A stretch of 64,000 nucleotides of DNA from Escherichia coli. GTDB lineage: Bacteria; Pseudomonadota; Gammaproteobacteria; Enterobacterales; Enterobacteriaceae. The stretch lies in the NCBI RefSeq assembly GCF_001677475.2, contig NZ_CP015229.1. One strand, 5' to 3'. A model generated the notes under the pieces. That model saw only the letters and a list, made by a program, of their open reading frames with translations. It ran no database searches and was not told the origin of the DNA. This document shows positions 1 through 59,419 of this stretch, piece after piece. Every line of letters starts with the position of its first letter. The stretch's first letter is position 1. The translations under genes and the position numbers were made by a program.

Positions 1-777
1 TCGCAATAACATCCGCAGCAGGGTTGCGTCACCCTGAACGGTGATGTCGGCGGCGCTCTCTGGCAATAGCAGGGTTTGCTGGCGCTGGTCGAGCATGGTA
101 CTGAGTTCGTCATACGAGGGGAGAATGACCTCTTCCAGCAGTTTTACATGTTGATAATTACCGGAAGAAAATGACTGTCCGGCGCGCGCCAGTTGTAACA
201 GCTGGGAGACGCTCTCCATCATCTGATCAAGCCGTGCCACTAACGGTGCTACATCAATGTGATGCGTTTTCGCCAGCAGTTCCAGATGCAAACGCACCCC
301 CGCCAGTGGCGTTCGCAGTTCGTGCGCGACGTCAGCGGTAAACAACCTTTCGTTATCCAGCGTGTTGGTCAGGCGACTGACCAGATCGTTTAACGCCGAA
401 ACCACCGCTTCGATTTCGAGGGTGGCGCTGTGAATGGCAATGGGCGTTAAGTTGTCGGCGGTGCGCGCTTCCAGCTCTTTTTGCAGCTCCGCCAGCGGGC
501 GGGTGATGCGATGCACCGCCTGATAGCAGATAAATAGCGTCAGGCTGACCATAAAGACGCCGGGGACAATCAGGCTGGCGACCGCCTCGCGGATCTCGCG
601 CATAATGTGGCGATCGTTGTTGCGATTGTCGCGTAGCGCCTGCTCAAACAGCTGAATCTGCTCGGTACTTTCATGCCATAGCCAGAAGACGCTGATCAAC
701 TCAAACACCAACAAAATGGCCCCGATGGTCAATATCAGCCGTTGGCGCAGCGATATTGGTCGGCGCAGAAAACGCAT
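1..777 (-). CDS. basS: Two-component sensor histidine kinase BasS/PmrB, N-terminal 259 codons; C-terminal part lies beyond the window start
   Basis: Minus-strand translation from ATG at 777..775 gives MRFLRRPISLRQRLILTIGAILLVFEL..., recognised as BasS; reading frame runs off the window edge; sits directly downstream of basR as in the eptA-basRS operon. Confidence 0.9.
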   Translation of the reverse strand, partial: MRFLRRPISLRQRLILTIGAILLVFELISVFWLWHESTEQIQLFEQALRDNRNNDRHIMREIREAVASLIVPGVFMVSLTLFICYQAVHRITRPLAELQKELEARTADNLTPIAIHSATLEIEAVVSALNDLVSRLTNTLDNERLFTADVAHELRTPLAGVRLHLELLAKTHHIDVAPLVARLDQMMESVSQLLQLARAGQSFSSGNYQHVKLLEEVILPSYDELSTMLDQRQQTLLLPESAADITVQGDATLLRMLLR

Positions 778-786
778 CAAATTCAA

Positions 787-1455
787 TTAGTTTTCCTCTT
801 TTGCGACCAGCATATAGCCAAAGCCGCGCACGGTGCGGATACGGGCTTTGCCCACTTTGTCGCGCAGATTGTGGATATGCACTTCCAGGGTGTTAGTCGA
901 GGGTTCATTGTCCCAGTTATAGATGTCGTTGTAGAGAATTTCCCGATGCACCGGACTGCCTGCTTTGAGCATTAACCGTGACAGCAGAGCATATTCTTTG
1001 GGCGTCAGAATCAACTCTTCACCGCCCATCCATACCTGACGGCGACCCATATTCAGCGTCAGATTGCCAACAATCAGCTCACTTTCGCCCTGATTATTAT
1101 GGCGTCGTAGCAGGGCGCGGATACGGGCGTGCAACTCTTCCAGCGCGAACGGTTTTACCAGATAGTCGTCAGCCCCGACATCCAGCCCGGCGATTTTGTC
1201 TGTAAGGGTATCGCGGGCGGTGAGAATTAACACCGGCAGAGTGTATTTTTTCTGCCGGATACGGGCAAGAAAATGCAGCCCATCTTCATCGGGTAAGCCT
1301 AAATCCAGTACCACCAGGCTGTAATGACCGGCCTCAAGGCTTTGTTCCGCCATCCGCGCGGTTGTCACGCCATCGCACGCGTAGCCTTCGGTTTGCGCCG
1401 CCAGAATCAATCCCTGCAATAACAGCGTATCGTCTTCAACAATCAGAATTTTCAT
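787..1455 (-). CDS. basR: Response regulator BasR/PmrA (OmpR family), 222 aa
   Basis: ORF-track protein [16 protein letters not shown]... recognised as BasR; start overlaps eptA stop by 4 nt (ATGA). Confidence 0.95.
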
Positions 1456-3095
1456 TCACTCACTCTCCTGCAAGTTTGCAGAATATCATCCGCAGCCTGG
1501 TAATACTTCGTCTCAACGCCAGTTAATCCCAATAGCGTGGAGAATAAATTGTCTTGTGAATAGTGTTGCGTTTGCGCCTGTTTTTGCAGGCAGTTCTGGT
1601 CAACCTGATACCGTTTTTGATAATCCTCCGACAGCCACAGCAGCATTGGCACCTGTTTTTGGCTATCCGGGGCGATGGCATAAGGCAGACCGTGCAGATA
1701 GATGCCATTTTCACCTAACGATTCACCGTGGTCAGAAAGATAAACCAGGCTGGTGGTAAATTTATCCTGATGTTCTTTCAGCAGATTAATCGCTTTATCA
1801 ACAATATAGTCGACGTAAACCAGCGTGTTGTCGTAAGTGTTCACCAGTTGCTCTTTGGTACAGGTCTGGATCTCATTGGTGTCGCAGGTTGGGGTAAATT
1901 TCCTGAACTGCGGCGGATAGCGGTTGTAATAGGTCGGACCGTGGCTGCCGATGGTGTGTAAGACAATCACGCCATCACCCTGCAGGTTATTGATGTACTC
2001 TTCCAGCCCGTGGAACAGCACTTCGTCATAGCATTCGCCGTTGATGCACTGACCAGGCAGATTCAGCGCGGTGACGTTCTGGTGAGGCACGCGGTCGCAG
2101 GCACCTTTACAGCCACCATCGTTGTCATTCCACAGCACGTTGATGCCCGCTCGCTGAATGATATCCAGCACGCCTTCCTGGTGCTGTGCCAGCTCTTCTT
2201 TGTAATGCTCACGCGGCATATCCGAGAACATACACGGTACTGAAACTGCCGTTGCCGTGCCGCAAGATGCGGTATTAGGGAAATAGACCACGTTATCTTT
2301 CGCCAATCGCGGGTTAGTTTCACGCGGGTAGCCGTTGAGGGAGAAGTTCTCCGCCCGCGAGGTTTCGCCGACAATCAGGATGGTCAAATTTTTACGTTTT
2401 TCGTTCTGCATTAACGGGTTGCGGTGCGCGTCTTCACCAATTCGCACCAGCGGCAGATTTGCCAGTCGCTGATGGGAGTACCATGACCAGCTGGCAACAA
2501 TGCTGTTAGAGGGGCTTAAGGACTTCACCAGCTCTTTGTTGTTGCGGAACAACGAGGCGTAGTCTTTATAAAACAGTGCGGCGACCAGCAAAATCAGCAG
2601 TACAGAAACCAGAATATTGGCTCCACGGAAAAGAACACTGCGCAGACGCGAGGTGGCAGGTTTGATTTTTATCCAGCAGGCAATCAGCGCAGCAAGCACG
2701 CCGCTGAATCCCAGCGTTAATAACATTTGCGGTGTCATCAGCGCATAACTTTCTGCCGGAGTGGTATCAATAATATTGGCAATCATCGAGCGGTCGATGA
2801 CGATGCCGTAAGTCATTATGAAATATTGTGCAGCCGCGCCAACCAGAATAAACAGGCAGGCCAGCGGTCGATTAAGCCATAAGAAAGAGCTTAGTGTCAG
2901 GACAATATTAATCACGCTGAAGGCGACGACCGGCATCGACAAGAAAACCAGTACGTTATGCAGCGAGTCCAGCGGCAGCGCCTGCAACACCTGTTTAAAA
3001 AAGGCAATATTCAGGCAGATAGAGATATAAAAAGCGGCCAACAATAGCCAGGCGAGTAAATTCAAAGAGGGTCTTTTTAGTAGGCGCTTCAACAT
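1452..3095 (-). CDS. eptA: Lipid A phosphoethanolamine transferase EptA/PmrC, 547 aa
   Basis: ORF 1452..3140 recognised as EptA; the recognised N-terminus [14 protein letters not shown] begins at the internal ATG 3095..3093, so the track ORF is 15 codons over-extended. Confidence 0.9.
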
Positions 3096-3141
3096 CACGG
3101 TGTTTCCATCGAACAAAGTGCGCATATGCTCGCAAAGCAAA

Positions 3142-3158
3142 ATTAAGCCAACCTTAAG
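3142..3158 (-). promoter_or_regulatory. Putative BasR/PmrA box (CTTAAG-N5-CTTAAT on the minus strand) upstream of eptA, embedded in a 14-bp-arm perfect palindrome (3145..3174)
   Basis: Reverse complement of 3142..3158 reads CTTAAGGTTGGCTTAAT, matching the PmrA direct-repeat consensus YTTAAK-N5-YTTAAK; lies about 47 bp upstream of the eptA ATG. Confidence 0.5.
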
Positions 3159-3198
3159 TTCTTAAGGTTGGCTTTTATGTGTGCTGGATTAAGGGGAA

Positions 3199-4536
3199 TT
3201 AATCTTTGCTTATTGGTGCATCTAAGGGATACGGGTTTTTATGCAGCCTGTTGTAATTCAGCGCATACATGGCGGTGATGACCATCAGGGTGACAAATGA
3301 CCACATAACCTCTTTCGCCCCGGACCCCACAACGGCCCAAATGCAGTAGAGGAAGGCAATGGTAGTAACAGCCAGATATGCCGGGCGTGCTTTACCAAAG
3401 TGACCGTGGCCGAGCAGCAGTAACGCCGCACAGGTGTAAAGATATGGCACCAGTGTAAAGATGACCGAGACGGAAGAAACCAGACCGAACTCTTTGGTCG
3501 CGTTTGGTGAAATGCTGCTGAGCTGGAAGATGGTCATCAAAATACCGACGATAATCAGCCCCGCCACTGGCGTACCCGCTTTATTTACACGGGCAAAAAT
3601 CGGTGGGAACAGTCCGTCATCGGCAGCGGCTTTCGCCGTTTGACCCGCCAGCAATGTCCAGCCGCCCAGTGAACCTAAGCAACCCGCAGCTGCGCAGAAG
3701 GAAACAATGGCCCCGGCGGTGTCACCCAACGCCATCCGTGCGGCATCACCGAATGGCGAGGCAGAAACGCGCAGTGCGGCATTAGGGATCATCCCCATAA
3801 TCGCGGTGGTGGAGAGTACATAGCAAACGGCGGCAATCAATACCCCACCAATGGTGGCGATAGGGACATTGCGTTTCGGGTTTTTCACCACACCTGCGGC
3901 AACGGAGGCACTTTCCACACCGATGAACGACCACAGCGTAACGTTAAGGGTACTTTGAATTGCACCGAAGGTGCCCAGGCCGCTGACGTTCCATGCCGCC
4001 ATATAGGTTTCACCACGGAACCAGAACCAGCCAAATACGGCAATCCCGACGATGGGGATCAGCGCCAGCACGGTGGCAACGGCCTGCACGCGGGTGATCA
4101 TTTTCGGACCGACAATGTTCAGCAGGACGAAGATCCACAGCACCACGACGCAGGTGATGGTTAATACCAGTGGATCTTTCAGAATCGGGAAGAAGTAACT
4201 TAAATATCCTACGCCAATGACCACCATGGCGATATTGCCGATCCAGCAGGCCAGCCAGTAGAGGACGTTGGTTTGATAACCGAGAAACGGGCCAAAGCAG
4301 CGGCGGGCGTAAGCGTAAGAACCACCAGGACTTGGGTCGAGGAACGACATTTTGGCGTATACCATCGAGAGCCCCAGCGCACCGATAATCGTCACCAACC
4401 ATCCATAAATGGCAATCCCGCCAGTGGAGGCCAGGTTTGCAGGTAACAGAAAAACACCTGACCCCATAATATTCCCCGACACCATCAGGGTGACGGGGAT
4501 TAAGCCCACTTTGTGAGCATCAGCATCCGAAGACAT
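3199..4536 (-). CDS. adiC: Arginine:agmatine antiporter AdiC, 445 aa
   Basis: Protein [36 protein letters not shown]... recognised as AdiC (APC family). Confidence 0.95.
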
Positions 4537-4672
4537 AATTAAACTCCTGCGAAGGCGAGCTTCGTGACAATAAATTACGTCATATCATACGCCTGCATTC
4601 GATAGTTGAATTATTATCGACCGGGTTATCGCTGATGCCGTTATTAATATAGCTCTTCGTTAAGGTTAAAAA

Positions 4673-5434
4673 TCAGGCGACAGTGCGTTCTCTGTGCTGA
4701 CTAACATAATGCAGCGGCGTCATACCGTAGAAGTCTTTAAAGACAGAAATAAAGTACGACGTACTGTTGTAGCCGCAGGACTGTGATACCTGAGAGATAT
4801 TTTTACCGTCCATCATTAATTCATTTACGGCATAACGCATGCGGCAGGTGGTGATTATTTGGCTATAACTGGTGTTTTCGCTTTTCAGCTTTTTCTTTAA
4901 CAGACTCGGGCTAAGACATAAACAACTGGCTACCATACTAAGATTCCAGTCTTTGTGGATATCGCTTTCAATAATTTGATAAACGCTGTCACTTACACAA
5001 TTACGTAACATATACATCATTAATGAAAGGAATTTTTTACTGTCGAGAAAACGGGATAGCACAGTGAATAATAATGCGCGTGTTCGTTCCTTTTCTGACT
5101 CAGTTTCAGCGGGCATCATGCTGTGTTGCGCGGCAACGCGAAAGACGTCTGGCGTCAGGCATGGCAGGGTGAGGATGGGCGTAGCACTACGTTGCCATAC
5201 TGGTATTTGCGAGAGATCTTTATTCAGAAACCGGAGGTAATCTTTGATGATGTCGTGACTAATATGAGCAACCAAAGTGTTATTAAGAGAGGAGACGTCG
5301 ATAATATTATTTTCACAATTTAATAACGCCATATGGTTAGCTTTAAGGCTAATAGGTTCTTTCCCATTCACCCTTATCCAGACATCTTTTTCAGTCAATA
5401 AAACAATACAAGGTTGGTCGCTGCAAATCCTCAT
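4673..5434 (-). CDS. adiY: AraC-family regulator AdiY, 253 aa
   Basis: Protein recognised as AdiY; C-terminal AraC-type HTH region; lies between adiA and adiC. Confidence 0.92.
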   Translation of the reverse strand: MRICSDQPCIVLLTEKDVWIRVNGKEPISLKANHMALLNCENNIIDVSSLNNTLVAHISHDIIKDYLRFLNKDLSQIPVWQRSATPILTLPCLTPDVFRVAAQHSMMPAETESEKERTRALLFTVLSRFLDSKKFLSLMMYMLRNCVSDSVYQIIESDIHKDWNLSMVASCLCLSPSLLKKKLKSENTSYSQIITTCRMRYAVNELMMDGKNISQVSQSCGYNSTSYFISVFKDFYGMTPLHYVSQHRERTVA

Positions 5435-5612
5435 ACATGTACTCCTGAGTGCGAATAAAAGACCAGTTCTCGCTAAAGCAAAGCGATACCGGGAAATGGT
5501 TATATAATTGTATGATGAATATAAACATGCATAAAAATAACGAGTTTTACTAATATTACAAATTTTTATAGTAATTTCTCATGTACATATTTTTTTACAG
5601 GGTAAATAACAG

Positions 5613-5641
5613 GCAAAAAAAAGCGCGGGGTGGGGCCGCGC
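5613..5641 (-). terminator. Putative rho-independent terminator downstream of adiA
   Basis: GC-rich hairpin GCGCGG..CCGCGC at 5623..5641, followed on the minus strand by a run of eight T (plus-strand A-run 5615..5622). Confidence 0.6.
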
Positions 5642-5758
5642 AAAAAGTATGACATTTTTGTTTGCAGCAATTTTTATGAAAACGTTGCCATACTCAAAAG
5701 GCCTAAGGCCAGGCGGCGTAATGTTATTTAAACAATTACGCCTTCAGCGGAATAGTGG

Positions 5759-8029
5759 TTACGCTTTCACACACATAACGTGGTAAATACCGTCAATAAT
5801 TTCAGTCCCTTCAGTTTCGTGTTCAAATCCAGGGAAATGATGATCCCAGGATTGCAGCGAGCGTAAATAACTTACTTGCGGACTGTTTTTATCGCCGAAG
5901 TTTTCACCAGACAGCAGCATCGGGATTCCTGGCGGATACGGGATAACTGAGTTTGCCGCAATGCGTCCTGGCAGATTTTCAATGGATACCAGTTCGACAT
6001 TGTTGTCGACAATTGCGTTGTACGCTTCTCGCGGGGTGATTTCCGCCACCGGCAGGCCGGAATAGGCTTCGTTCAACCGTGCGCCAGGGTTGTTTTCTTT
6101 CAGCCAGGCAAACATGGTGTCACCCAGATCGTGAATCCCCATGTTCGCGTAAGTGTCAGGATATTGTTCAACAAGTTCCGGCATCACCTGCGCCAGCGGT
6201 GTGTTGGCGTCATAGTGGCGTTTGAAGGAGCAAAGGGTGTTAACCAGAGTCCCCCATTTCCCACGGGTTACGCCCATAGAGAACAGGAACATAATTTGGA
6301 AGTCAGTGGTGCGGGTAGGCACAATGCCGTGGCGACCAAGCCAGGCAGTGACCAGCGCCGCCGGAACACCGGTTTCTTCCAGTTCACCATCTTCACCCAT
6401 TCCCGGAGCAAGGATGCTGACTTTAATTGGGTCGAGCATACTCCAGTTATCCGGAATATCTTTGAAGCCGTGCCAGCTTTCGCCCGGATGCATTACCCAG
6501 CAGTCCTGAACGGTGGTCAGCAGTTTGGTTGGTGCGTCAGCAAAGTCATAGGTTTTGCCGGTTTGTGGGTCGGTGACGACTTCTTTGTTCCACGGTTTGA
6601 AGAACCAGCTACCGTCAGCGGTGAACTCTTTATACAGCCGCGCCATCGCCTGACGGAAATCAACCGCTTCGTCGATCACTTCCTGCGTCAGTGACAGGCC
6701 GCTGTTGCCGTCCATCATCGACACCGCCACGTCGTTGGATGCGCAGATGGCATACAGCGGGGAGGTGGTGGCATGCATCATGTAGGCCTGGTTGAAGCGG
6801 GAGAAGTTAATCGCCCCACGACCTTCACGTACATGAATATAAGAAGCCTGTGAAAGCGCATTCAGCAGTTTGTGGGTGGAATGGGTGGCGAAAACAGTAG
6901 GACCGTTGTGATCGCCAGGTTCGCCGCGCATGGCATAGTGATCGGCATAGATCGGGTTGAAACGTGCATAGCCGTACCAGGCTTCGTCAAAGTGCAGACG
7001 ATCGGAGGTTTTTTCCAGCAGATCCTGCGCTTCTTTAGCGTTATAACACACGCCGTCATAGGTGCAGTTGGTCACCACGCAGTAAGACGGTTTTTGCCCG
7101 GCTTTGTCTTTGGTCAGCGGGCTTTCACTGATTTTCTTCTGCAAGGTTTCAGGTTGCATTTCTTGCGGATAGATTGGCCCGATAATGCCGTAGCGGTTGC
7201 GGCTTGGCACCATGTAGACCGGTTTCGCGCCTGTCAGCATCAAGCCTTGTTCGATGGATTTATGGCAGTTACGGTCAACGACCACGACATCGTTATCGGT
7301 CATGCAAGCCTGCATGATGGTGCGGTTAGAGCCGGAAGTACCGACGACTACCGACCAGGAGCGATCGGCACCAAATACGCGTGCGGCATATTTTTCGCTT
7401 TCGCCAAATGCGCCAGTATGGTCAAGCAAAGAACCGAGGGAAGTTCGTTCGATGCCCATGTCGGTGCGGAACAGGTTTTCACCATAGTAGTCATGGTAGA
7501 AACGTCCGGCGGGTGTTTTGGTAAAACCAACGCCACCCTGGTGGCCTGGCGCTGCCCAGGAATATTCATGGATGTCGCTATATTTCATCAGCGCGCTGAA
7601 CAGTGGCGGCAACAGTTGCTGGCGGTAGCGGGTCATCGCGGCAACGGCGCGTCCGGCGATAAAGTCGGCGGTATCTTCCAGAATCCAGGCGAATTCATCG
7701 ACAAGCTCCAGCAGATCCCGGTCCATTGCGGCGAGGGCTTTTTCCCGATCGCCCAACAGGAAGACCGGCACGTTTTGTTGGCGCTCATGAAGCTTACCGA
7801 TCAATTGTCTGACGTTTTGATGTTCGTCCGGATGTTCCATTTGATAGCTGAACATCAGGCAGTCAATGGCTTCGTTTGAAGAGAGAATGGCAAAACCATC
7901 ATCAAAGGAGGTGGATTTAATCACGGTAACATTTTGCTGGCTTAAAGCATCTGCCAGACGCTCAACGGCGTTACCGACCCAGGTGTCTTGATGGAGAAAC
8001 TCGCTTTCAACAATTAATACTTTCATCAT
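5759..8029 (-). CDS. adiA: Biodegradative (acid-inducible) arginine decarboxylase AdiA
   Basis: Protein MMKVLIVESEFLHQDTWVGNAVERLADALS... recognised as AdiA; true start is either of the two adjacent ATG codons. Confidence 0.95.
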   Translation of the reverse strand: MMKVLIVESEFLHQDTWVGNAVERLADALSQQNVTVIKSTSFDDGFAILSSNEAIDCLMFSYQMEHPDEHQNVRQLIGKLHERQQNVPVFLLGDREKALAAMDRDLLELVDEFAWILEDTADFIAGRAVAAMTRYRQQLLPPLFSALMKYSDIHEYSWAAPGHQGGVGFTKTPAGRFYHDYYGENLFRTDMGIERTSLGSLLDHTGAFGESEKYAARVFGADRSWSVVVGTSGSNRTIMQACMTDNDVVVVDRNCHKSIEQGLMLTGAKPVYMVPSRNRYGIIGPIYPQEMQPETLQKKISESPLTKDKAGQKPSYCVVTNCTYDGVCYNAKEAQDLLEKTSDRLHFDEAWYGYARFNPIYADHYAMRGEPGDHNGPTVFATHSTHKLLNALSQASYIHVREGRGAINFSRFNQAYMMHATTSPLYAICASNDVAVSMMDGNSGLSLTQEVIDEAVDFRQAMARLYKEFTADGSWFFKPWNKEVVTDPQTGKTYDFADAPTKLLTTVQDCWVMHPGESWHGFKDIPDNWSMLDPIKVSILAPGMGEDGELEETGVPAALVTAWLGRHGIVPTRTTDFQIMFLFSMGVTRGKWGTLVNTLCSFKRHYDANTPLAQVMPELVEQYPDTYANMGIHDLGDTMFAWLKENNPGARLNEAYSGLPVAEITPREAYNAIVDNNVELVSIENLPGRIAANSVIPYPPGIPMLLSGENFGDKNSPQVSYLRSLQSWDHHFPGFEHETEGTEIIDGIYHVMCVKA

Positions 8030-8224
8030 TGCTTACCCGGTTATGAAGGAATCTTCGTTGCGGGCAAGTATCTTCCGGCCTTTTCGGGCTGTAAAGCGCG
8101 TGAAAAATAAACATTTTTGAAATATTTGTTTTTATAAACAATATGTTATGTGATTATTTTAAATTATTTTCACTGCTTATTATCGACGGCTAAACTATTT
8201 TTTTGGCTGATACTGATATCGTCT

Positions 8225-19589: not shown

Positions 19590-19862
19590 ATGGAAATACG
19601 CGAAGGCCACAATAAATTTTACATAAATGACGAACAAGGCAAGCAAATCGCTGAAATTGTCTTTGTGCCGACCGGAGAGAATTTAGCGATTATCGAACAT
19701 ACCGATGTCGATGAAAGCCTGAAAGGGCAAGGGATTGGTAAACAGCTGGTTGCGAAAGTCGTGGAAAAAATGCGTCGGGAAAAACGAAAAATTATCCCAC
19801 TATGCCCATTTGCGAAACACGAATTTGATAAAACGCGGGAGTATGATGATATTCGCAGTTGA
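19590..19862 (+). CDS. yjdJ: Small GNAT-like protein YjdJ, 90 aa
   Basis: Protein [40 protein letters not shown]... recognised as YjdJ; GAGGG SD; 11 nt after yjdI. Confidence 0.85.
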
Positions 19863-20088
19863 TGGGAGAGTACAGATTCACGATATTTTTCATGCTCTCC
19901 GCGGTGTGATGCAGGAGAGCATCTGAAGGGTAGGGGGATGCACAAAGAATGGGCAGAGAGCGCGTTTTTTTGTCCCAAGTCATCCCCTTTACTGAGCAAA
20001 AAAAAGAATATCTCCTATATGAGAATCATCAATCGGGGTTAATAAGTTTTGCGTCCCCAGAGCGTTTAAAATTGATAGGAGTCATATT

Positions 20089-20385
20089 ATGGAAGGTAAA
20101 AACAAGTTCAATACTTATGTTGTTTCTTTTGATTATCCATCATCTTATTCCTCAGTGTTCTTAAGGTTAAGATCATTGATGTATGATATGAATTTCTCCT
20201 CTATCGTGGCTGATGAATATGGGATACCACGACAATTGAATGAAAATTCCTTCGCAATAACGACATCGTTAGCCGCAAGTGAAATCGAAGATTTAATCAG
20301 GCTTAAATGCTTAGACTTACCGGATATTGATTTTGACCTCAACATTATGACAGTTGATGACTATTTCCGTCAGTTTTACAAGTAG
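20089..20385 (+). CDS. ghoS: Type V antitoxin GhoS (sequence-specific endoribonuclease), 98 aa
   Basis: Protein MEGKNKFNTYVVSFDYPSSYSSVFLRLRSLMYDMNFSS... recognised as GhoS (YjdK); AGGAG SD upstream. Confidence 0.85.
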   Translation: MEGKNKFNTYVVSFDYPSSYSSVFLRLRSLMYDMNFSSIVADEYGIPRQLNENSFAITTSLAASEIEDLIRLKCLDLPDIDFDLNIMTVDDYFRQFYK

Positions 20386-20412
20386 CCAGGAAGGATAAGA
20401 AGAACATAAAAA

Positions 20413-20586
20413 ATGGCACTATTCTCTAAAATATTAATTTTTTATGTGATTGGTGTGAACATATCCTTTGTCATTATCTGGTTTATCTCACATGAGAAAA
20501 CACATATTCGTTTACTTAGTGCATTCCTGGTCGGAATAACCTGGCCAATGAGTCTGCCTGTGGCATTACTTTTTTCTCTCTTTTAG
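20413..20586 (+). CDS. ghoT: Small membrane toxin GhoT, 57 aa (absent from the ORF track because it is under 60 aa)
   Basis: ATG 20413 to TAG 20584..20586 encodes MALFSKILIFYVIGVNISFVIIWFISHEKTHIRLLSAFLVGITWPMSLPVALLFSLF, hydrophobic, 27 nt downstream of ghoS on the same strand. Confidence 0.8.
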   Translation: MALFSKILIFYVIGVNISFVIIWFISHEKTHIRLLSAFLVGITWPMSLPVALLFSLF

Positions 20587-20704
20587 GAGCTGTAGTTGAG
20601 TGGACCCGCTGGTTATCTTGAAACGAAGCGTCTCTCCTCAAAACTGGATTTGCGGAACGACGAACGAAGCAGTCGCCTGACTGCTTCGTTCATTAAAGTG
20701 AAAT

Positions 20705-22222
20705 TTATTTCTGTGGGCGCATCGCCGGGAAGAGAATAACGTCGCGAATAGTATGACTGTTTGTAAACAGCATAATCATTCGGTCGATACCAATACCCAG
20801 ACCAGCGGTTGGCGGCAGACCATATTCCAGCGCAGTCACGTAATCTTCGTCATAGAACATGGCTTCGTCGTCACCTGCAGCTTTAGCGTTAACCTGTTCC
20901 TGGAAACGTTCAGCCTGATCTTCTGCATCGTTTAATTCGCTAAAACCATTACCGATTTCACGACCACCGATGAAGAATTCAAAACGGTCGGTGATTTCCG
21001 GGTTAACATCATTACGGCGCGCCAGCGGGGACACTTCTGCCGGATATTCCGTAATAAAGGTTGGCTGAATCAGATGTGCTTCTGCCACTTCATCAAAGAT
21101 CTCCGTAACAATACGTCCCAGACCCCAGCTTTTCTCTACCGTAATTCCGATAGATTCAGCTAATGCTTTAGCGGCATCAAAATTATCCAGGTCGGCCATA
21201 TCGGTTTCTGGACGATATTTTTTGATTGCTTCGCGCATGGTGAGTTTTTCAAACGGTTTGCCGAAATCAAACACATGCTCGCCATAAGTGACTTTAGTGG
21301 TACCCAGAACCTCTTGTGCCAGGGTGCGGAACAGTGACTCTGTCAGTTCAATCAAATCGTGGTAATCCGCATACGCCATGTAGAGTTCCATCATTGTGAA
21401 CTCAGGATTATGGCGAACAGAAATGCCTTCATTACGGAAGTTACGGTTGATTTCGAATACCCGTTCAAAACCGCCTACAACCAGACGTTTCAGATACAGC
21501 TCCGGCGCAATACGCAGGTACATATCTAAATCCAGAGCGTTATGATGGGTAATAAACGGGCGAGCAGATGCCCCACCTGGAATTACCTGCATCATCGGGG
21601 TTTCTACTTCCATAAAGCCGCGCGCGACCATGAACTGGCGGATAGCGGCCAGAATTTTTGAACGGACAACAAACGTTTGACGGGATTTATCGTTAGCGAT
21701 GAGGTCCAGATAACGTTGACGATAACGGACTTCCTGATCCTGCAGACCATGGAATTTATCTGGTAAAGGACGTAGTGCTTTTGTCAGCAGGCGCAACTCA
21801 GTACAGTGAATGGAAAGCTCACCCGTTTGCGTCTTAAACAGCGTACCGCGGGCACCGATAATGTCACCCAGATCCCATTTTTTAAACTGATCGTTATAAA
21901 CACCTTCTGGCAGGCTATCTCGTGCGACGTACAGTTGAATACGGCCACCGACATCCTGCAACGTTACAAAGGAGGCTTTCCCCATGATACGACGGGTCAT
22001 CATTCGGCCAGCAACCGAGACTTCAATGTTTAAGGATTCCAGTTCCTGGTTATCCTTCGCATCAAACTCTTCGTGCAACTGGTCAGAGGTATGGTCGCGG
22101 CGAAAATCATTGGGAAACGCCACACCTTGCTGACGTAGTGCCGCCAGCTTTTCGCGGCGATTTCTCAGTTCATCGTTAAAATCAATAGCCTCATTGGCTC
22201 CCCGTGTTTCTCGTTCAGACAT
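20705..22222 (-). CDS. lysU: Lysyl-tRNA synthetase, heat-inducible isoform LysU, 505 aa
   Basis: ORF 20705..22249 recognised as LysU; the recognised N-terminus [15 protein letters not shown] starts at ATG 22222..22220. Confidence 0.92.
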
Positions 22223-30056: not shown

Positions 30057-30132
30057 TGGTGCCCGGACTCGGAATCGAACCAAGGACACGGGGATTTTCA
30101 ATCCCCTGCTCTACCGACTGAGCTATCCGGGC
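30057..30132 (-). tRNA. pheU: tRNA-Phe (anticodon GAA), 76 nt
   Basis: Reverse complement reads GCCCGGATAGCTCAGTCGGTAGAGCAGGGGATTGAAAATCCCCGTGTCCTTGGTTCGATTCCGAGTCCGGGCACCA, the canonical E. coli tRNA-Phe. Confidence 0.95.
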
Positions 30133-43935: not shown

Positions 43936-44004
43936 GCGATAGTCACAAAGGTAATAGTTGAAATTCCCCTGCCACCTGGCAAAATATCCGTTCAACCATC
44001 AGCT

Positions 44005-44049
44005 TTGCAGGACGACCTGCAAACGCGTCTTTTCACCGGGGACGGCCCC
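44005..44049 (+). promoter_or_regulatory. Candidate guanidine-II (mini-ykkC) riboswitch in the gdx 5' leader
   Basis: Two hairpins each closed by an ACGR tetraloop: TTGCAGG-ACGA-CCTGCAA (44005..44022) and GGGG-ACGG-CCCC (44038..44049), 15 nt apart, 19 nt upstream of the gdx ATG; this is the mini-ykkC architecture typically found upstream of SugE/Gdx-type exporters. Confidence 0.65.
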
Positions 44050-44067
44050 AATTCTCCGGAGCCTGAT

Positions 44068-58999: not shown

Positions 59000-59075
<76 letters not shown>

Positions 59076-59232: not shown

Positions 59233-59308
<76 letters not shown>

Positions 59309-59343: not shown

Positions 59344-59419
<76 letters not shown>

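Follow-up and report, generated by a model that had tools for sequence, protein, structure and literature searches.

Does an open reading frame of only 57 codons, lying directly behind a frame of 98 residues in a stretch of Escherichia coli DNA, encode the toxin of a type V toxin-antitoxin pair, and would it act by the mechanism described for such a pair? The window analysed here (the whole stretch of 64,000 nucleotides of contig NZ_CP015229.1, assembly GCF_001677475.2) had been given a sequence-only reading that placed ghoS and ghoT at this position. We conclude, at a probability of about 97%, that the pair represents ghoS-ghoT (yjdK-yjdO), the type V toxin-antitoxin operon of the E. coli chromosome, located at its usual site between yjdJ and lysU and presumably operating by the K-12 mechanism. 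The locus is already known: it is the founding type V toxin-antitoxin example, characterised since 2012 and routinely annotated.

The type V antitoxin GhoS cleaves the mRNA of its toxin and does not bind the toxin protein (PMC4010927, PMC3905216). Studies of the K-12 proteins describe GhoS as an endoribonuclease that targets ghoT mRNA specifically and has a Cas2-like fold (PMC4010927), and GhoT as a toxin that damages the membrane and possesses two transmembrane segments (PMC4344625). The GCU-specific enzyme MqsR cuts ghoS mRNA, and ghoT mRNA, which is devoid of GCU, is enriched as a result (PMC4344625, PMC3905216, PMC4010927).

Results

Coordinates of the open reading frames

Open reading frames were listed with a minimum length of 20 aa. 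This confirmed the 98-aa frame that precedes the toxin, as well as both the sequence and the coordinates of the 57-codon frame. The elements of the locus are as follows.

20077..20081, + strand: Shine-Dalgarno-like AGGAG, 7 nt 5' of the ghoS ATG (read from sequence, presumed function)
20089..20385, + strand: ghoS, 98 aa, ATG start, MEGKNKFNTYVV...RQFYK (ORF listing, 20-aa minimum)
20386..20412, + strand: ghoS-ghoT spacer, 27 nt, CCAGGAAGGATAAGAAGAACATAAAAA
20413..20586, + strand: ghoT, 57 aa, ATG start, MALFSKILIFYVIGVNISFVIIWFISHEKTHIRLLSAFLVGITWPMSLPVALLFSLF, stop codon TAG at 20584..20586 (ORF listing, 20-aa minimum)
20662..20691, strand unassigned: hairpin between the convergent ghoT and lysU, 13 bp perfect, GAACGAAGCAGUC-GCCU-GACUGCUUCGUUC

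At a 60-aa cut-off no frame is listed between 20386 and 20700, and the toxin is thus invisible to such a track, as had been claimed. The broader statement that length-filtered annotation would miss it holds for a naive 60-aa filter but not for standard annotation, given that the gene is b4559 in MG1655 and that PGAP names GhoT throughout RefSeq.

Identity and genomic context

A profile search matched the 57-aa peptide to Pfam PF10753 (Toxin_GhoT_OrtT) with an E value of 9.8e-26 and 90.2 bits, residues 4-57 aligning with positions 1-55 of the 55-position model. At the nucleotide level the gene is identical to E. coli K-12 MG1655 b4559 (174/174 nt). Homology of the short frame to GhoT, on which the earlier proposal hinged, is hence established by both the PF10753 match and 100% identity to the K-12 protein. 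The 98-aa protein matches Pfam PF11080 (Endoribonuclease GhoS) over its full length with an E value of 7e-41, and is identical at 98/98 residues to chain A of PDB entry 2LLZ, which is labelled 'uncharacterized protein YjdK'. Its gene differs from K-12 b4128 by 3 synonymous nucleotides, leaving the protein identical.

The genes dcuR-dcuS-yjdI-yjdJ-ghoS-ghoT-lysU-dtpC-cadA follow one another as they do in MG1655 and E24377A. Measured from the start of dcuS to the stop of lysU, the interval is 1,537 bp both here and in K-12, with 20 substitutions. This marks the window as a segment of an E. coli chromosome. Assignment of the pair as ghoS and ghoT is therefore supported by identity, by the Pfam profiles, by synteny with K-12 and by RefSeq naming in thousands of genomes; neither a residue mismatch to K-12 GhoT or GhoS nor a different genomic context was found that would count against it. 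The NCBIfam HMM library (release 20.0) contained no model matching GhoS or GhoT at E <= 0.01. PGAP names both genes all the same, so this naming must rest on something else.

Protein features and GCU sites

The toxin frame had been described as hydrophobic, and a hydropathy calculation agrees: GhoT has a GRAVY of 1.5 and two hydrophobic segments, at approximately residues 3-26 and 33-57, with the polar loop SHEKTHIR between them. Hydropathy in 15-residue windows exceeds 1.6 over residues 1-27, peaks at 1.2-1.7 over residues 30-57 and reaches its minimum at SHEKTHIR. By this hydropathy calculation they are putative transmembrane segments. Residue 21 is Ile and residue 38 is Phe. The latter is invariant in an alignment of GhoT, OrtT and a Pantoea toxin, and its substitution (F38R) abolishes the toxicity of GhoT (PMC4344625). 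Growth inhibition and membrane damage on overproduction have been published for the K-12 protein of identical sequence (PMC4344625, citing Cheng et al. 2014).

In GhoS, residue 28 is Arg, within the context SSVFLRLRSLMYDMN; R28 is the most important catalytic residue of the enzyme (PMC4010927). Cleavage of ghoT mRNA has been published for the identical K-12 protein, as cited in PMC4010927, PMC4344625 and PMC3905216. Another 20 mRNAs have been reported as GhoS targets (PMC4010927, PMC3905216).

Three GCU sites of the MqsR type occur in ghoS (gene positions 121, 213 and 221), compared with none in ghoT and none in the spacer. The pattern of three in ghoS versus zero in ghoT is common to all seven alleles compared below. 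Mononucleotide shuffles yield P = 0.095 for zero GCU in ghoT, and synonymous-codon shuffles lead to an expectation of 0.28 sites; by itself, the lack of GCU in ghoT falls short of statistical significance.

Expression signals and transcript layout

Both genes lie on the + strand with the antitoxin first and a gap of 27 nt, corresponding to a bicistronic layout. A terminator scan found no terminator-like site in 19800..20800 and hence none between ghoS and ghoT, and a search by promoter consensus gave no sigma-70-like candidate on the + strand in the yjdJ-ghoS gap. The ghoS Shine-Dalgarno (AGGAG, 7-nt spacing) is rated good. For ghoT, the purine-rich AGGAAGGA and AAGAAG lie 17 nt and 10 nt from the ATG, respectively, which leaves the gene without a well-placed strong Shine-Dalgarno. 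The 27-nt spacer is identical in 6 of the 7 alleles compared.

Downstream of ghoT, the RNA of 20587..20710 folds with -40.9 kcal/mol (z -3.27) and includes the hairpin at 20662-20691, which has a 4-nt loop and sits 14 nt from the lysU stop. No T run flanks this hairpin on either strand, and for this reason the terminator scan made no call. We infer that it is a possible 3'-end structure shared by ghoT and lysU.

Distribution, conservation and origin

The locus was matched in 5,341 of the 5,426 complete genomes of E. coli, in all cases at >=95% identity, and the pair occurs in about 5,320-5,340 of them. RefSeq labels the products 'type V toxin-antitoxin system endoribonuclease antitoxin GhoS' and 'type V toxin-antitoxin system toxin GhoT', and rows sampled throughout the ranking of genome matches have both genes annotated intact. 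Seven alleles were compared (the window, MG1655, E24377A, CFT073, ERL03-1416, 08-00022 and p009_C). Only two sites vary in ghoT, both synonymously, and a single protein results (WP_001173343.1). In ghoS, six variable sites are synonymous and two are non-synonymous (D15N and N85S). The variation in both genes points to purifying selection.

Among the genomes that do not contain the locus, FDAARGOS_1250 has an IS1A at the ghoS start (3501-5489 of its record, matching the window from about 20060-20107 onward) and is devoid of ghoS, ghoT, lysU, dtpC, cadA, cadB and the 3' end of cadC. This absence is an IS1-mediated deletion of the cad region and no specific loss of the toxin-antitoxin pair. The same kind of deletion may explain many of the ~100 genomes without ghoST.

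A search of the 10000-32000 portion of the window gave a best match of 98.9% identity over 22 kb among the 5,426 complete RefSeq E. coli genomes, so the source lineage has no close representative among them. Even so, GhoS and GhoT are identical to the K-12 proteins.

The GC content of the ghoST block (20000-20600) is 34-36%, versus ~47-50% in dcuS and lysU on either side. Such a low-GC island is consistent with a foreign origin. Neither protein matched the PADLOC defence models or the PHROGs families, and tblastn against a phage collection gave no match for GhoS or GhoT, hence there is no support for a link to phages or defence islands. Mobility via plasmids was considered and rejected. The 94-kb E. 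coli 'plasmid' p009_C carries full chromosomal synteny (dcuRS-yjdIJ-ghoST-lysS-dtpC-cadA, at 406-8171), and the other ghoST-bearing 'plasmid' records measure 0.37-4.9 Mb; these records probably represent pieces of chromosome or replicons with a wrong label.

In the plasmid collection, GhoT/OrtT-family toxins were found in 78 Pantoea megaplasmid records and a few Proteus, Klebsiella and Salmonella records, while GhoS was found in Escherichia records only. Within the plasmid and E. coli collections searched, it is thus a tentative possibility, though one we would not favour, that GhoS is a lineage-restricted add-on controlling a more widespread and otherwise orphan toxin of the GhoT/OrtT type. 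If true, this, together with the low GC content of the ghoST cassette, would suggest that the type V arrangement arose when two foreign genes were inserted as a cassette, or when a Cas2-like RNase was recruited beside a pre-existing toxin.

Other elements in the window

Several structured RNAs were recognised elsewhere in the window by Rfam.

30057-30132, - strand: tRNA-Phe(GAA)
44004-44050, + strand: Guanidine-II (mini-ykkC) riboswitch (RF01068), 49.3 bits (gathering score 32), within the region of a small + strand ORF; a known element
59000-59075, 59233-59308 and 59344-59419, + strand: cluster of three tRNA-Gly(GCC) genes with equal Rfam scores

The riboswitch presumably forms the leader of a gene of the gdx/sugE type. 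The tRNA-Phe and tRNA-Gly genes fit the pheU and glyVXY arrangement of K-12.

Discussion

Alternative interpretations

The brevity of the toxin frame raises the question of whether ghoS is the only real gene, with the 57-codon frame simply a chance opening in AT-rich DNA. An ATG-initiated frame of at least 57 aa arose in 163 of 2000 shuffles (8%) of the ghoS-lysU interval (20386..20704), so the length of ghoT by itself is within chance expectation, and the weak spacing and strength of the Shine-Dalgarno point in the same direction. It is homology and conservation, rather than length, that mark ghoT as a real gene: the Pfam match (E 9.8e-26) covers the full model, the nucleotide sequence is shared in its entirety with b4559, and variation across the seven alleles is solely synonymous. 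Homologues with 46-70% identity exist in Pantoea, in Proteus and as a K-12 paralogue, and the identical K-12 protein has a published toxicity that is lost with F38R (PMC4344625). A chance frame is refuted by these observations and can be considered extremely improbable. Just as improbable is that the peptide represents the paralogue OrtT (YdcX), or another GhoT/OrtT member, outside the control of GhoS. PF10753 does cover GhoT and OrtT alike, and OrtT-like toxins do occur without GhoS on the 78 Pantoea megaplasmids. However, the peptide has 63% identity to K-12 OrtT (matching the figure published in PMC4344625) versus 100% to K-12 GhoT, and the frame lies 27 nt 3' of ghoS in the ghoST context rather than in patD-yncL-ortT-ydcY. 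An OrtT identity was rejected on both counts.

A different view accepts both genes but doubts that they are mainly a stress or persistence switch: GhoS would chiefly be a general RNase, GhoT would be minor and normally silent, and the MqsR cascade might be incidental. This would be in keeping with the ~20 mRNAs of purine and pyrimidine metabolism reported as GhoS targets (PMC4010927, PMC3905216), with the compatibility of the GCU distribution in ghoT with chance, with the lack of a PADLOC defence or phage-family match for either protein, and with loss of the pair alongside the cad region by IS1 deletion in at least one strain. Against it, published K-12 experiments report that GhoT is toxic, that GhoS counteracts it and that activation depends on MqsR, as cited in PMC4344625 and PMC3905216. 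Furthermore, diverse lineages of E. coli share one and the same GhoT protein, an argument for selection on the peptide itself. We consider this view unlikely, and favour the type V operon with the K-12 mechanism.

Proposed mechanism

The mechanism derives from the literature on the K-12 proteins of identical sequence, to which the present analysis adds identity, orthology, synteny, conservation and the required sequence features. All sequence-level features of GhoT, GhoS and the type V layout that were examined are present in the window. The activities originally proposed for the pair, i.e. a membrane-damaging toxin and an endoribonuclease antitoxin that cuts the toxin mRNA, agree with what has been published for these proteins (PMC4010927, PMC4344625, PMC3905216).

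By analogy with K-12, ghoS and ghoT would be transcribed together, with the antitoxin gene first. GhoS, a stable endoribonuclease with a Cas2-like fold, would cut the mRNA within its ghoT part and thereby keep GhoT synthesis low. Under stress, the type II toxin MqsR would become active and cut mRNA at GCU; with three such sites in the ghoS part and none in the ghoT part, ghoT mRNA would be enriched. GhoT is then expected to enter the inner membrane via its two hydrophobic helices and to lower both ATP and membrane integrity. The outcome would be slow-growing and drug-tolerant cells, or lysed 'ghost' cells.

While the discovery value of the ghoST locus is little, it can serve as a calibration case: a 60-aa cut-off hides real, functional small membrane toxins. 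At this size the length of a frame is inseparable from chance, as the 8% of shuffles illustrates, and evidence from homology or conservation is needed.

Comparison with known systems

The closest relative is the K-12 pair GhoT/GhoS (yjdO/yjdK, b4559/b4128), reportedly described by Wang et al. in 2012 (Nat Chem Biol 8:855) as the founding type V toxin-antitoxin system. The window shares with it the toxin at both protein and nucleotide level, the antitoxin protein, the 27-nt spacer, the gene order, the flanks and the GCU distribution. What differs are the 3 synonymous positions in ghoS and the 20 substitutions over 1,537 bp, and no functional difference is predicted from these.

OrtT (YdcX, b1445), an orphan GhoT-like toxin of E. 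coli (PMC4344625), resembles GhoT in its length of 57 aa, its Pfam family, F38 and a conserved C-terminal half (LSAFLVG.TWPMS.PVALLFSLF). Unlike GhoT, it has no upstream ghoS, GhoS does not neutralise it, and two GCU sites occur in its mRNA (PMC4344625). Its genomic context is patD-yncL-ortT-ydcY, whereas ghoT of the window is found 27 nt 3' of ghoS. The toxin of Pantoea vagans pPag3 (2501-2949) likewise has no ghoS upstream, with 70% identity to K-12 OrtT and 54% to GhoT. A hypothetical ORF of 56 aa lies 3' of this Pantoea toxin; it displays no similarity to YdcY and was rejected as a YdcY homologue.

The CRISPR-associated endoribonuclease Cas2 is reported to have its fold and conserved catalytic residues in common with GhoS (PMC4010927), and R28 is present here. 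This likeness in fold comes from the literature, the contribution of the present analysis being the identity to 2LLZ. GhoS differs from Cas2 in that it has no CRISPR context and acts on mRNA. The type I toxins (for example TisB/IstR and Hok/Sok) are similar to GhoT as small hydrophobic toxins of the inner membrane whose synthesis is regulated through their mRNA. The Rfam search gave no family at the ghoST locus. In type I systems the antitoxin is an antisense RNA, whereas GhoS is a protein RNase encoded upstream of its toxin, on the same strand.
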